Below, one piece after another: positions 20,678 through 25,754 of a stretch of 27,870 nt of DNA. Made by a program: the position numbers and the translations under genes. The notes beneath the pieces were generated by a model, which was not told where the DNA came from, searched no databases, and saw only the letters and a list, made by a program, of their open reading frames with translations. Within the stretch, counting starts at the first letter, position 1. Each line of letters begins with the position of its first letter. The DNA comes from Candidatus Iainarchaeum sp. (GTDB taxonomy: Archaea; Iainarchaeota; Iainarchaeia; Iainarchaeales; GCA-2688035): assembly GCA_017610205.1 (NCBI GenBank), contig JAFCCL010000012.1, positions 1 through 27,870 on the forward strand, in the 5' to 3' direction.

Positions 20678-21622
20678 TTAAAACTTTATGTTACCGGCAT
20701 GGGGTTCTTCATCATCCTCATAAAAGCCCAGTGTTTTTTTTGCCCTGGCCTTTTTTGCAGATTTTTTTCTTTTTAATTTCCGAACCCTTTTCTTTATCTC
20801 TTCCTCACCCTCAATTGCTTCTGTTGAATCAGACAATACAATTGTCCCCTTGAATTCAGTTCCTTGCACAGCTGCCTTGACGTTTTCCAAATCGTGTCCG
20901 TTCAAAAACAAGACAGTAATTGCACTTCTCTTTAAAATTATTGCTGCAGGCAAATCAAGGATAAGATTTTGACCTGGTTTCATTGCATTTCCTGAAAGAA
21001 TTTCAATAAGCTTTGAATGGCTTAGTTCAGTATACATTCTTGCAGAAGGGTGTGCAGAAGGGTCTGCTGTAAAAATGCCGTCAACATTGCTTAGGTTAAT
21101 TAATCTTGCCCCAAGGCATTCGGCAAGCAAAGCCGCAACTGCATCAGTTGTAAATCCAGGAATTAATCCGCCGTATATAGGAGTTTTGCCGGCGGCAAGA
21201 ATTTCGCCAGCACGGGAAATGTCCTTAAGCACATTAGGAAAAGAATTTTCAATAGAAATAAGCAAAAGAACTGCATTGGCTCTTGTAATTCTAATTCCCA
21301 ATTCATCAAGCTCAAAATTATTGGCCCCAAGATTTTTTGCAGTATTTACATAATCTCTTGCAACTCTTCCTCCGCCAACAACAAGAACAAGCTTGTGCCC
21401 CTGTCTTATGAGATCATTCAAACAATTTGAAATTGCCAAAACTCTTTCTGCGTTTGGCTTTCCATCCATCAAAATGCTTCCGCCAACACTTATTACAGTA
21501 ACATTCGAAATAGATGATGAAACATGTTGAGACGAATAATTTTCATGCGATGGTCTGATTATTTCAGTTTCTTCATCATTTTCTTTTTCCTTATTAAACA
21601 TTCCAAACATGTCTTCAAACAT
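20678..21622 (-). CDS. pyrH: archaeal UMP kinase with N- and C-terminal extensions
   Basis: VISVGGS, VVGGGRVAR, DELGIRITRANA, PGFTTDAVAA, SNVDGIFTADP, FKGTIV. Confidence 0.93.
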   Translation of the reverse strand: MFEDMFGMFNKEKENDEETEIIRPSHENYSSQHVSSSISNVTVISVGGSILMDGKPNAERVLAISNCLNDLIRQGHKLVLVVGGGRVARDYVNTAKNLGANNFELDELGIRITRANAVLLLISIENSFPNVLKDISRAGEILAAGKTPIYGGLIPGFTTDAVAALLAECLGARLINLSNVDGIFTADPSAHPSARMYTELSHSKLIEILSGNAMKPGQNLILDLPAAIILKRSAITVLFLNGHDLENVKAAVQGTEFKGTIVLSDSTEAIEGEEEIKKRVRKLKRKKSAKKARAKKTLGFYEDDEEPHAGNIKF

Positions 21623-21706: not shown

Positions 21707-24478
21707 TTGGTGAAAACAATGGCAAACAATGGAATTGAAGAGATTGCAGAAGCCGATATGGTGGTTTTCAAAAAGAAACTGCGAAAGATGTCTGCTTTCA
21801 AAGGAAAGGGAACAGAACTTATTTCGCTTTATCTTCCGCCTGACGTAGACAGGAGTCTGGTCACAGGACAATTGACGGAGGAAATGTCACAAAGCAGCAA
21901 TATCAAAAGCCCAACCACAAGAAAGAACGTGCAGGGGGCTTTAAGAAAAGTACAGAATTTTCTTAAATCAATAAATTTTAAGCTTCCAGAACAGGGAATT
22001 GTTGTTTTCTGCGGAAATGTAAGCCAGCAGGAGGGAAAGCAGGACATACAGCTTTTTACATTAAAACCAGTGAAAAGACTTAACACAAAGCTTTACTGGT
22101 GCGATTCAGAATTCCATTTAGGTCCATTGCAGGAAATGGCACAGCCCTCAGAAGTTTTTGGAATTTTAACAATTGACAAAAATGAGGCAACAATTGCAAT
22201 CCTTATAGGAAAAAAATACGAAATTTTGGGACATTTTACAAGCACAGTTGCAGGAAAGACAAGGGCTGGGGGGCAATGTCTTTTAGGAGATTCTCTGATT
22301 CAGCTTAGTGACGGAAACATTGTGAAGATAAGTGAGGTTGGCAATCCAGCAGCTGTCAAAAGTGTTGACTTTGGAAACTATTCAATTCAAGATTCGTTTA
22401 TTTCAAATAAGTGGAAGGAAAACAAGTTTAAGGCATTAAAAATAATTACAAGATACCCACAGATGAGTATTACTTGTTCCAAAGACCATAAATTCTTTTG
22501 CTGGAACCAAGGTAAAATAGAAGAAAAAACAGCCGCAGAACTAAAAGAGAATGAATTTCTTATAATGCCTGAAAGAATCCAAGTCACAAGCAACATCCAA
22601 CATATTAATACAAATTTCTTTAACAGTTATATTATTTCAAAAAAAGGACTTAAAGAATTGATTAGGACAAGAAAGGAACTTGAATTTAGCCAAAAAGAAT
22701 TTGGAAAAAAGATTGGATTGCATCAAGCTTCTGTTTCACGTTTTGAGTTAGGAAGATTTAATCCACGAATTAGCTATTTGAAAAAAGTTTGCCAGGGATT
22801 GAACTTGGATGCAGACCGATTTATTTCAGAATTTTGCAAGCCAAAAAGCGATTTGCGCTTGCCGGCAGAAGTTGATACAAATCTTGCTCAAATTATAGGT
22901 TATCTTCTTGGTGACGGAAGCATTGAGGATGAAAGGTTAAATTTCTATGAAGAAGACAGGGAAACCGCAATCTTTTATGAAAGGCTTTTGAGAAAAGTGT
23001 TTAATGCCAAGATAAGAACAGGATTTAGAGAAAGTAAAAACTATCATGAAATAAGATGCTACGGAAAACCAATTGTTAGATTGATAAGGCAGGAGTTTCC
23101 AGAGGTAAACAAAGCCAGAACATCTGTCATTCCCAAAAAGATACTGAAAAGCGAAAATGGGATTGTAGCAGCCTTCCTAAGAGGATTATTTGACGCAGAA
23201 GGCTATGTGACAAAAAGAGGGCTTTCGGCAGGAATGAATAATAAAATGCTTGTTAAGCAGATACAGATTGCTCTGCTAAGGTTTGGCATATTATCATCTG
23301 TACACGAATATGATAACAGGAGAAACCCTTATTCAAATAATACAAAATTTACTATAGATGTAACTGAAAGAAAATCTTTAAAAATATTCAAAAAAGAAAT
23401 TGGATTTTCTTATTCAAAAAAGAAGGAAAAATTAAAAGCAACAGTTAAAAGCAAGGGCTTTAGAAGCTGCGTTAGGCAAATATTTATATCAGGAAAAGAA
23501 GTCAGGCGAATGTTTGAAACAGAGGGATTTAATACAGAAGCATTTCCAAAAGTTTCAGACTTTTTTAGAAACCAACGGATGATTGGAAAAGAAACCTTTA
23601 GAAAATTCATAATATCACAAGTTAAGAATAATAAGAAGTTGAAAGAAAAGTTTGAAACAATATTCTCAGTTCCGTTACTTCCAGTTAAAATTCATAAAAT
23701 CAAAAAAATTAGTTTGCCAACAAAAATGCATGACATAACCGTAAAAAATTCGAATTTTCTTGCAAACGGAATAGTAGTTCACAACAGCGCACACCGCTTT
23801 GAAAGATTAAGAGAAGAAGCAGCCCAAAGCTTTTACAAAAAAATAAGCGAAAAAATGAATGGCATATTTTTGCCATATGGGGAAAATCTTAAGGGACTGA
23901 TTATTGCAGGGCCAGGCATTACAAAAAATTATTTTCTAAACCAGGAACTAATGGACAACAGACTTAGGAATATTATTATCGGAAGCATTGACACAGGTTA
24001 TACTGATGAATCAGGAATAAGGGAAACTGTTCAAAAAAGCGGAGAGCTTCTGAAAGGAGCTGAAATAACAAAGGAACGCAAAAACCTTGAAAAATTTTTT
24101 GAGGCAGTTGTAAAAACAGGTTTGGGAACCTATGGACAAAAAGAGGTTGAAAAAGCATTGCTAATAGGACAGGTTGACACAGTTTTGGTAAGCGAAGAAA
24201 TAGAATGGCAGATTTACAAATTCAAATGCGACAACTGCGAAACAGAACACGAAATTGTTGTAAAAGACCAATCTGATAAAGAAGCCAAAAAATTTAAATG
24301 CGAAAAATGCGAAAGTACCAATGCAGAACTTGTTGAGCAAATTGATTATATTGACTGGATAATGGAAAAGGCGAAAAGCACTGGCGCAAAAACAAAAATT
24401 ATAAGCACTGAAACCCCTGAAGGAGAGCAATTTTACAGGGGTTTTGGCGGCGTTGGTGCAATACTTCGATATAAGTAG
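21707..24478 (+). CDS. prf1: peptide chain release factor aRF1 precursor containing an intein
   Basis: GTELISLY, NIKS, YWCDSEF, GGQ|intein|SAHRFERL, C-terminal GFGGVGAILRY; exteins total 420 aa. Confidence 0.96.
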   Translation: MVKTMANNGIEEIAEADMVVFKKKLRKMSAFKGKGTELISLYLPPDVDRSLVTGQLTEEMSQSSNIKSPTTRKNVQGALRKVQNFLKSINFKLPEQGIVVFCGNVSQQEGKQDIQLFTLKPVKRLNTKLYWCDSEFHLGPLQEMAQPSEVFGILTIDKNEATIAILIGKKYEILGHFTSTVAGKTRAGGQCLLGDSLIQLSDGNIVKISEVGNPAAVKSVDFGNYSIQDSFISNKWKENKFKALKIITRYPQMSITCSKDHKFFCWNQGKIEEKTAAELKENEFLIMPERIQVTSNIQHINTNFFNSYIISKKGLKELIRTRKELEFSQKEFGKKIGLHQASVSRFELGRFNPRISYLKKVCQGLNLDADRFISEFCKPKSDLRLPAEVDTNLAQIIGYLLGDGSIEDERLNFYEEDRETAIFYERLLRKVFNAKIRTGFRESKNYHEIRCYGKPIVRLIRQEFPEVNKARTSVIPKKILKSENGIVAAFLRGLFDAEGYVTKRGLSAGMNNKMLVKQIQIALLRFGILSSVHEYDNRRNPYSNNTKFTIDVTERKSLKIFKKEIGFSYSKKKEKLKATVKSKGFRSCVRQIFISGKEVRRMFETEGFNTEAFPKVSDFFRNQRMIGKETFRKFIISQVKNNKKLKEKFETIFSVPLLPVKIHKIKKISLPTKMHDITVKNSNFLANGIVVHNSAHRFERLREEAAQSFYKKISEKMNGIFLPYGENLKGLIIAGPGITKNYFLNQELMDNRLRNIIIGSIDTGYTDESGIRETVQKSGELLKGAEITKERKNLEKFFEAVVKTGLGTYGQKEVEKALLIGQVDTVLVSEEIEWQIYKFKCDNCETEHEIVVKDQSDKEAKKFKCEKCESTNAELVEQIDYIDWIMEKAKSTGAKTKIISTETPEGEQFYRGFGGVGAILRYK
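22277..23785 (+). mobile_element. intein (503 aa) with XRE-like HTH and LAGLIDADG homing endonuclease
   Basis: Block A CLLGDSLI, block B CSKDHKF, IGYLLGDGS and FLRGLFDAEG, block F/G MHDITV..NFLANGIVVHN followed by Ser+1. Confidence 0.95.
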
Positions 24479-24488
24479 CTGGTTTTCA

Positions 24489-25754
24489 ATGAAAAGAATT
24501 TATTCTACAACAGGCAATGGAATAGGAGGCCAAATAAAAAGGCGCTATACTGATTTTGTTGTAGAAGAAGTAAGAGAAGACGGACGAGTTTGCACAGTAA
24601 AACGATTTAATGAAGAAGGAACACATTTAGAGGAAAGAATAAAAGTTCCAAAGCAAACCGAAGGCGTGGAACAACTGCATCTTGATTTGGAAAAAATAAA
24701 CAAGGACATGAATTTTACAATAAGACAACTTGCAAGATATTTACAGTGCAGCAATAGAAGAATTAGCTATGCAGGAATGAAAGATAAACGGGCAGTTACC
24801 TGTCAGAGAATCAGCATATTTCAGCCAAATGTTGAAAGGCTGGAGGCATTTGGAAGCAGGGGAATTCAGCTAAGAAATCCAGGTTGGGAAAAGGAAAGAC
24901 TTGAACTTGGGCTACTTAAGGGAAACAAATTTACAATTACAGTGAGAGATATTGATTTGCCACAGGAAGAAATTGAAAAAAAGATTAAGACATGTTTTAA
25001 GGAAATGAAAAACGGAATTGCAAACTATTTTGGAGAACAGCGCTTTGGAGGAATAAGGCAAATAACCCACAGGGTTGGAAAAGAATTTTTAAAAGGACGC
25101 TTTAAGGAAGGAGTAATGCTTTACCTTACACACACAGTGGATGGAGAACAGGAAGAAATCAAAAAGGCAAGGGAAAGGCTTTACGAAACAGGAGACTTTG
25201 CAGAAGCAACACGATTGTTTCCGCCAAAATTCAGATATGAAAGAAGCATGATTCACCATTTGTGCAAATACCCAAATGACTTTGTTGGAGCTTTTGGAAA
25301 ACTGCCAAAAAAGCTTCGTTACCTTTTCACACACGCTTACCAAAGCTATTTGTTTAATCTTATTATAGAAGAAAGGATAGCGCATGGAATTGGTTTAAAA
25401 AAGATTGAAGGAGATATATTAATTGACAATGTTCCAACAGCCCAGCTTTTTGGATTTGAATCAGAATTTACCAAAGGAAAACTGGGCGAAATTGAAAAAA
25501 AGATTTTGAAAGAAGAAGAGATTTCATTGGAAGAATTTAGAGTGAAGAAAATGGCTGAAATTTCAAGCAAGGGAACAAGAAAAGCCATTGTTTTATTTCC
25601 TGAAAAACTTAAGCTTGTTGAAATTAAAAATGATGAATTTTATCCTGAAAAACTTTGCGCAACAATTTCGTTTGAACTTTCAAAAGGAAATTATGCCACA
25701 ACTGTTTTGGAAGAAATAATGAAGAAACAAAACCATGGAAGTGAAAGCCGGTGA
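24489..25754 (+). CDS. truD: tRNA pseudouridine(13) synthase TruD
   Basis: DFVVEE, YAGMKDKRAVTCQ, GNKFTI, NYFGEQRFG, HAYQSYLFN, FELSKGNYAT; ATG 24489. Confidence 0.96.
   Translation: MKRIYSTTGNGIGGQIKRRYTDFVVEEVREDGRVCTVKRFNEEGTHLEERIKVPKQTEGVEQLHLDLEKINKDMNFTIRQLARYLQCSNRRISYAGMKDKRAVTCQRISIFQPNVERLEAFGSRGIQLRNPGWEKERLELGLLKGNKFTITVRDIDLPQEEIEKKIKTCFKEMKNGIANYFGEQRFGGIRQITHRVGKEFLKGRFKEGVMLYLTHTVDGEQEEIKKARERLYETGDFAEATRLFPPKFRYERSMIHHLCKYPNDFVGAFGKLPKKLRYLFTHAYQSYLFNLIIEERIAHGIGLKKIEGDILIDNVPTAQLFGFESEFTKGKLGEIEKKILKEEEISLEEFRVKKMAEISSKGTRKAIVLFPEKLKLVEIKNDEFYPEKLCATISFELSKGNYATTVLEEIMKKQNHGSESR

Follow-up and report, generated by a model that had tools for sequence, protein, structure and literature searches.

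The stretch of archaeal DNA analysed here (hereafter the window; 27,870 nucleotides (nt), positions 1 to 27,870 of the forward strand of contig JAFCCL010000012.1 from the Candidatus Iainarchaeum sp. assembly GCA_017610205.1) carries a gene for the release factor aRF1 that is interrupted by an intein directly behind its GGQ motif. We consider it highly probable that the insert is a class-1 intein with its own LAGLIDADG endonuclease and a helix-turn-helix (HTH) module, that it is mobile, and that it occupies the only aRF1 gene of its genome, between GGQ and the next Ser. The anatomy of the insert, the conservation of its catalytic residues, its fold, the single aRF1 gene and a distribution that is both wide and patchy are seen directly, and splicing and homing are deduced from them.

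A single open reading frame (ORF) on the forward strand (21707–24478) contains aRF1 with the intein inside it. It encodes 923 amino acids (aa) when read from a TTG at 21707, or 919 aa from an ATG at 21719, the start used in the protein database copy. The intein (22277–23785, forward strand; 1509 nt, 503 aa) lies between the Gln of GGQ (codons at 22268–22276) and the next Ser (Ser+1, codon at 23786–23788), with the junctions RAGGQ/CLLGDS and GIVVHN/SAHRFERL (slashes mark the insertion boundaries). The wider translation reads GKTRAGGQ/CLLGDSLIQLSDG...NFLANGIVVHN/SAHRFERLREE, and the DNA flanks at the insertion site are GGGGGGCAA and AGCGCACAC. The N-extein (21707–22276, forward strand) covers aRF1 domain 1, in which NIKS and YWCDSEF are found, and continues into domain 2 as far as GGQ (eRF1_1 at residues 23–144; TIGR03676 positions 2–174). 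The C-extein (23786–24478, forward strand) comprises Ser+1, the rest of domain 2, domain 3 and the stop codon (eRF1_2 at 693–783; eRF1_3 at 788–923; TIGR03676 positions 174–402).

Profile searches agree on both the host and the insert. On the precursor, Pfam reports eRF1_1, an interrupted eRF1_2 and eRF1_3, all above their curated cut-offs, together with Intein_splicing (E 4.7e-18; 65.9 bits against a cut-off of 35.8), LAGLIDADG_3 in two stretches (E 5.9e-21; 75 bits, above cut-off) and HTH_3 (E 8.9e-10; 38.9 bits against a cut-off of 23). The NCBIfam intein models TIGR01445 (intein_Nterm) and TIGR01443 (intein_Cterm) match as well. The host part is identified as aRF1 by the equivalog model TIGR03676 (441.5 bits against a cut-off of 234.7) and by the NIKS, YxCxxxF (here YWCDSEF) and GGQ motifs in the translation. 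Searched against the genome, TIGR03676 splits at the insert: profile positions 2–174 precede it (21758–22279) and 174–402 follow it (23786–24475). Intein-free alleles of the same genus read continuously through the site (AGGQ/SAHRFERLR), and by both the profile and these alleles excision of the insert leaves a contiguous aRF1 of 420 aa (from the TTG) or 416 aa (from the ATG). The insertion pattern is not due to chance. A first-pass annotation of this DNA had proposed an intein directly after GGQ with Gln as residue −1 and Ser as +1, and the ORF, Pfam, NCBIfam and split-profile results bear this out at the sequence level for an apparently intact intein. The interval it gave, 22268–23788, spans GGQ through Ser+1 exactly, and its 503-aa intein, 420-aa remainder (from the TTG) and flanking DNA words are all correct.

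The internal organization of the intein was read from two alignments, one of the window intein with 59 relatives from other genomes (n = 60) and a smaller one (n = 8). Cys1, Ser68, His71, Asp486, His502 and Asn503 are invariant in the 60 sequences and, with Ser+1 present, make up the residue set of a class 1 intein (Cys1, block B, block F Asp, His-Asn and +1). From Cys1 (22277–22279) to His502-Asn503 (23780–23785), the limits of the whole element agree between the junctions, the alignment and a structural model. The Hint N-lobe (residues 1–117; 22277–22627), supported by Intein_splicing, TIGR01445 (residues 1–75) and model strands at 7–98, holds block A Cys1 and block B (22478–22489), which reads SKDH (Ser68-Lys-Asp-His71), where Ser takes the position normally held by the Thr of TxxH. 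It is followed by a Cro/XRE-type HTH module (residues 118–190; 22628–22846; HTH_3 and model helices) and by the LAGLIDADG domain (residues 196–396; 22862–23464), whose motif 1 LAQIIGYLLGDG (22883–22918) contains Asp213 and whose motif 2 AAFLRGLFDAEGY (23165–23206) contains Glu308. Both acidic residues are kept in at least 90% of the 60 inteins, and Gly212, Asp306 and Gly309 are invariant. A helical segment (residues 406–463; 23492–23665), seen in the model and conserved in both alignments, connects the endonuclease to the Hint C-lobe and probably either serves as another accessory element or contacts DNA. The C-lobe itself (residues 467–503; 23675–23785) carries block F Asp486 and block G VVHN, and is supported by TIGR01443, the invariant residues and strands at 467–502. 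All of these parts are on the forward strand.

An AlphaFold2 model of the intein is of high confidence (mean predicted local distance difference test score 94.0; predicted template modelling score 0.92). Its best Foldseek matches are 7qss (TliVMA; E 5.7e-25), 1dq3 (PI-PfuI) and 2cw7 (PI-TkoII), and VIA-align ranks the same group highly: 7qsu (Z 36.1; root-mean-square deviation (rmsd) 2.7, 327 aligned), 7qss (Z 35.9; 391 aligned), 2cw7 (Z 34.0; 431 aligned), 7qst (Z 32.1) and 1dq3 (Z 29.5; 379 aligned). Mini-inteins and hedgehog Hint domains align with Z 20–21 and rmsd 1.3–1.8, which identifies the Hint fold, and I-Tsp061I (Z 18.7) and I-DmoI (Z 18.0) align over model residues 196–396. Together with the two Pfam stretches and Asp213/Glu308, these endonuclease matches define a two-motif LAGLIDADG enzyme. 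By every sequence and fold test applied, the insert is a conventional full-size archaeal class-1 intein with a LAGLIDADG endonuclease and an HTH.

The HTH module of about 70 residues belongs to the Cro/C1 (XRE) HTH_3 type by its score above the gathering threshold and by the five-helix bundle in the model (helices within 122–186). Its nearest solved sequences are DBP48, HipB, C.BclI and HigA (E 4e-5 to 2e-3). The module is separable: a 434-aa aRF1 intein in another genome of the comparison set (G024) lacks exactly alignment columns 108–174 and is otherwise complete, and 14 of the 120 best database matches described below have no HTH-type Pfam family (hand count). Beyer & Iwai 2022 (PMC8966425) describe a variety of accessory domains attached to the endonuclease domain in archaeal inteins and connect them with recognition of the homing site. 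The HTH is most likely such an accessory DNA grip of the endonuclease, with DNA binding as its predicted activity.

Whether a second intact aRF1 exists, as the first-pass annotation had asked, bears on what the insertion means for the cell. The window belongs to an assembly of 1.37 Mb in 24 contigs that is 92% complete, and a TIGR03676 profile search of this 92%-complete assembly found no second aRF1. The other match in the genome was rejected as a second copy, being weak (49.9 and 26.7 bits), confined to the C-terminal part of the profile and located in a 352-aa, pelota-like frame. No second aRF1 was seen either in the 10 intein-bearing genomes among 41 relatives. The GGQ loop of a release factor is the site of peptidyl-tRNA hydrolysis. 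Because the insert breaks this loop and no second aRF1 was found, the precursor is presumably inactive and splicing obligatory for active aRF1, as the first-pass annotation had suggested for termination. The genome also contains a HemK/Mtq2-type Gln methylase gene (TIGR00537, 146.5 bits against a cut-off of 87; MTS domain), which makes it reasonable to expect that Gln methylation of aRF1 must follow splicing.

The first-pass annotation had further implied that such an insertion is rare and had called for a search of archaeal proteins for aRF1 with Hint domains. That search found many, and rarity did not hold up. Limited to proteins of 507–1616 aa and E ≤ 1e-5, a database search returned 507 matches; eRF1 domains, Intein_splicing and LAGLIDADG_3 occur together in all of the best 120, GGQ is directly followed by Cys in 119 of these (the exception being P0002, discussed below), and a regular expression found HN/S..RF in 118. 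Source names among these 120 include Diapherotrites/Iainarchaeum, Aenigmarchaeota (Aenigmatarchaeota), Woesearchaeota and Nanoarchaeota, and some matches already bear the JGI label 'peptide subunit release factor 1 (eRF1)/intein/homing endonuclease'. Species-representative genomes contain 291 stretches that code for relatives of the intein. GGQ/C...N/S..RF lies in one open frame in 72 of the best 80 of these loci, the remaining eight including contig-end truncations, a deletion allele and four loci that were not inspected. In the aligned sets, aRF1 inteins of other DPANN genomes are 39–69% identical to that of the window. Across the order (41 genomes), the aRF1 profile is split at 173/174 in 10 genomes, contiguous in 27 and unresolved in 4; the genus of the window has the intein in four of seven genomes (the window genome G000 as well as G004, G005 and G006) and lacks it in G001–G003.

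Six of the loci (L028, L031, L048, L049, L074 and L076) hold DPANN-type aRF1 inteins on contigs labelled, for example, Chloroflexi, Falkowbacteria, Aminicenantes, Methanosarcinales or Thaumarchaeota; these bin labels look unreliable.

To relate the intein to the history of its host gene, we used a maximum-likelihood tree of the extein with 22 loci from the 41 genomes (left out were G004, because of a deletion, G005, whose gene lies on two contigs, and 17 others). Mapping the presence of the intein onto this tree takes 8 changes, of which well-supported branches force at least 5; the labels are no more clustered than shuffled ones (mean 6.8 changes). The window extein is sister to that of the intein-free genome G002 (support 97/97). 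We also compared identities in 2485 pairs from 71 of 81 loci. Among close relatives the extein is more alike than the intein (80–82% against 66–69% for the window versus L029 and L030), while intein identity reaches a plateau at about 45% as extein identity drops to 30–40%; of the 258 pairs in this 30–40% band, 253 show the higher identity in the intein. The plateau fits transfer between DPANN lineages. The intein is also more AT-rich than its host gene (GC content 0.328 against 0.398 and 0.370), and intein-free alleles of the genus differ from the window flanks at a few synonymous positions near the site, both of which fit a foreign mobile element. Given its patchy presence, the intein-free sister extein and an endonuclease that looks intact, the element fits the signature of a selfish homing element and not that of a fixed regulator.

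Several points weigh against this reading or parts of it. In the extein tree, the branch carrying G009 and G019 is implausibly long; these two rows probably represent neighbouring genes, which leaves 20 sound rows. The plateau in intein identity could instead be a constraint floor, and the identity comparison is biased, since 80 of the loci had been picked as most similar to the query. A sample of the phylum (215 genomes, 204 with an aRF1 match) shows about 48 genomes with a two-piece profile, a hand count from the table that rests on the two-match pattern, the position of the split being displayed only for the 10 genomes of the order. Block B has Ser instead of Thr; yet this Ser is invariant across the 60 aRF1 inteins. 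Splicing and cleavage, like homing and the role of the HTH, are predicted from sequence. A survey of sequencing runs listed none of RNA, and two DNA runs with about 5% of the sampled words. Finally, the allele of the same-genus genome G004 (L020, contig C81, locus at about 750–800; protein P0002), which is 84% identical, has a clean in-frame deletion of 93 nt that takes the last 13 residues of the N-extein including GGQ (TSTVAGKTRAGGQ) and the first 18 residues of the intein including Cys1. It thus lacks the N-terminal junction, and such alleles can be dead, or the assembly wrong. No other aRF1 was seen in the 87%-complete G004 assembly, and the allele may be an assembly artefact, a dead or non-viable population variant, or the sign of a missing second copy.

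The deletion in G004, which removes both GGQ and Cys1, and the existence of shorter variants without the HTH would be expected if the element were decaying, no longer splicing or homing, with the aRF1 gene on its way to loss or already a pseudogene here. For the window we regard this as extremely unlikely: all splicing residues and both acidic residues of the endonuclease are intact, the frame is open over 923 codons, and the interrupted gene is the only aRF1 in the 92%-complete genome. The opposite extreme, a host-serving switch, starts from the same broken loop. The first-pass annotation had described the insertion as a possible conditional control point, and a redox, temperature or metal signal acting on splicing could in principle tune termination capacity and the Gln methylation of aRF1, given that the precursor must be inactive, that no second aRF1 was found and that an Mtq2-like methylase gene is present. 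Conditional splicing has been reported for other archaeal inteins, reportedly including that of RadA (Topilina et al. 2015). The sequence offers no support for this proposal, and the patchy presence, the intein-free sister and the intact endonuclease, as expected of a mobile rather than a domesticated element, speak against it. No Cys besides Cys1 is invariant in the 8-sequence alignment, in which C67 and C75 vary, so that no conserved disulfide partner for Cys1 was seen near the splice site there; C172, which lies within the HTH, is the only other Cys kept in at least 90% of the 60 aligned sequences. Since sister lineages easily do without the intein (three of the seven genomes in the genus, and the nearest extein relative), we consider a conditional switch very unlikely. 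A more far-reaching form, in which splicing at GGQ is conditional and sensed by the intein, possibly via its HTH or helical parts, and would gate the whole termination capacity together with Gln methylation in these DPANN archaea, strikes us as very unlikely too. The same low probability covers a still bolder variant, in which G004-like alleles are genuine and translation in some lineages ends through a different mechanism.

For a mobile class-1 intein, the favoured interpretation, the following course of events can be proposed. The precursor of 919–923 aa would be translated with its peptidyl-tRNA-hydrolysis loop broken. An N-S acyl shift at Cys1, transesterification by attack of Ser+1, cyclisation of Asn503 and an O-N shift would then join ...GGQ-SAHRF... 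and release an aRF1 of 416–420 aa, and only this spliced form would be open to Gln methylation and active on the ribosome. The excised intein, or else the precursor, would be expected to cut intein-free aRF1 genes at the GGQ-coding site, whose repair would copy the intein in (homing), with the HTH module most likely supplying extra DNA contacts. The element would persist because the stretch it occupies is the best conserved of an essential gene and the hardest to delete, and not through any need of the host.

The aRF1 intein is one of about 13 such elements in the 1.37 Mb of this genome. Twelve further ORFs (loci L108–L119, on contigs C1, C3, C4, C10, C14, C16 and C19) have Intein_splicing and/or LAGLIDADG_3 inside host proteins, namely a thiamine pyrophosphate enzyme, three T2SSE/PilB-type ATPases, two HerA/DUF87 helicases, MCM, RFC, Top6A, a phosphoenolpyruvate-utilising enzyme, NrdD and one 863-aa ORF (L110, 3163–5751) with no Pfam family in its host part. 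Among the ATPase inteins, that of L109 also has HTH_3/HTH_31, located after its endonuclease, and the MCM intein region gives a weak HTH match. Around the aRF1 gene, the neighbours are an amino-acid-kinase family gene (20678–21622, reverse strand) and truD (24444–25754, forward strand), neither of which is intein-related, and the antisense frames overlapping the aRF1 region are short (50–69 aa). The longest truD frame, from a TTG at 24444, shares 35 nt with the 3′ end of aRF1; translation of truD may really begin at an ATG near 24490, shortly downstream of the aRF1 stop codon.

Domain 3 of aRF1 contains a zinc-ribbon-like CxxC...CxxC insert (KCDNC...KCEKC; 24215–24330, residues ~836–874), where Pfam reports a weak Zn_ribbon_8 match (E 1.8e-4, below cut-off). 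A CxxC pair also occurs in the same region of domain 3 in the aRF1s of several relatives. In-frame stops in aRF1 of related genera were considered as signs of recoding and dismissed in five of six genomes, where they are the terminal stop at profile position 402. The single true internal TGA (L125, contig C22 of G090) lies in domain 3 at codon ~339 and falls at a Cys of the second CxxC of the zinc-ribbon insert in other aRF1s of the phylum (…KAE*HSCGNE…, with the asterisk marking the TGA); possible explanations are a sequencing error, selenocysteine and recoding.

The first-pass annotation did not recall aRF1 as a characterised intein host, and we likewise found no paper naming it as one: full-text literature searches, with InBase and subscription journals outside their scope, returned no paper on a natural aRF1 or eRF1 intein. 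The intein census of Novikova et al. 2015 has no occurrence of release factor, aRF1 or eRF1 in its main text and two of its three supplementary files, and states that core translation components contain few inteins. A BsV paper was set aside as a report of an aRF1 intein, since it mentions eRF1 and inteins separately. The aRF1 GGQ/C intein is thus a large allele family that is apparently undescribed in print. It shows that aRF1 regularly hosts an intein in DPANN archaea, at the catalytic motif it conserves best, and widens the catalogue of insertion sites. Protein engineering may draw on it as a natural intein whose flanking residues are Gln at −1 and Ser at +1, and its endonuclease is a candidate meganuclease aimed at a GGQ-coding sequence. 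Annotators who meet aRF1 genes of 840–920 aa in a DPANN bin are dealing with neither fusions nor errors. The present evidence does not reveal a new regulatory principle.

Among known systems, PI-TkoII (2cw7) and PI-PfuI (1dq3) resemble the aRF1 intein in being full-size and in combining a two-motif LAGLIDADG core with additional parts that bind DNA. Their hosts are DNA polymerase and ribonucleotide reductase, respectively, and they are 18–26% identical to the aRF1 intein. Cleavage and splicing have been characterised experimentally for both of them, whereas for the aRF1 intein they are predicted. The best structural matches, the TliVMA and PhoVMA inteins of Thermococcales (7qss, 7qsu and 7qst; PMC8966425), likewise combine Hint, LAGLIDADG and one or more accessory domains, are archaeal and interrupt an essential protein in a region that is conserved and catalytic. 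They differ in their host, which is V-ATPase subunit A and not aRF1, in sequence (18–21% identity), and apparently in the accessory domain, which in the aRF1 intein is an HTH_3 (Cro/XRE) module located between the Hint N-lobe and the endonuclease. The closest counterparts are the GGQ inteins in aRF1 of other DPANN archaea, unpublished alleles in public data that share the host, the site (GGQ/C...HN/S) and the architecture; some of them lack the HTH (434 aa), and there is no essential difference between them and the intein of the window.

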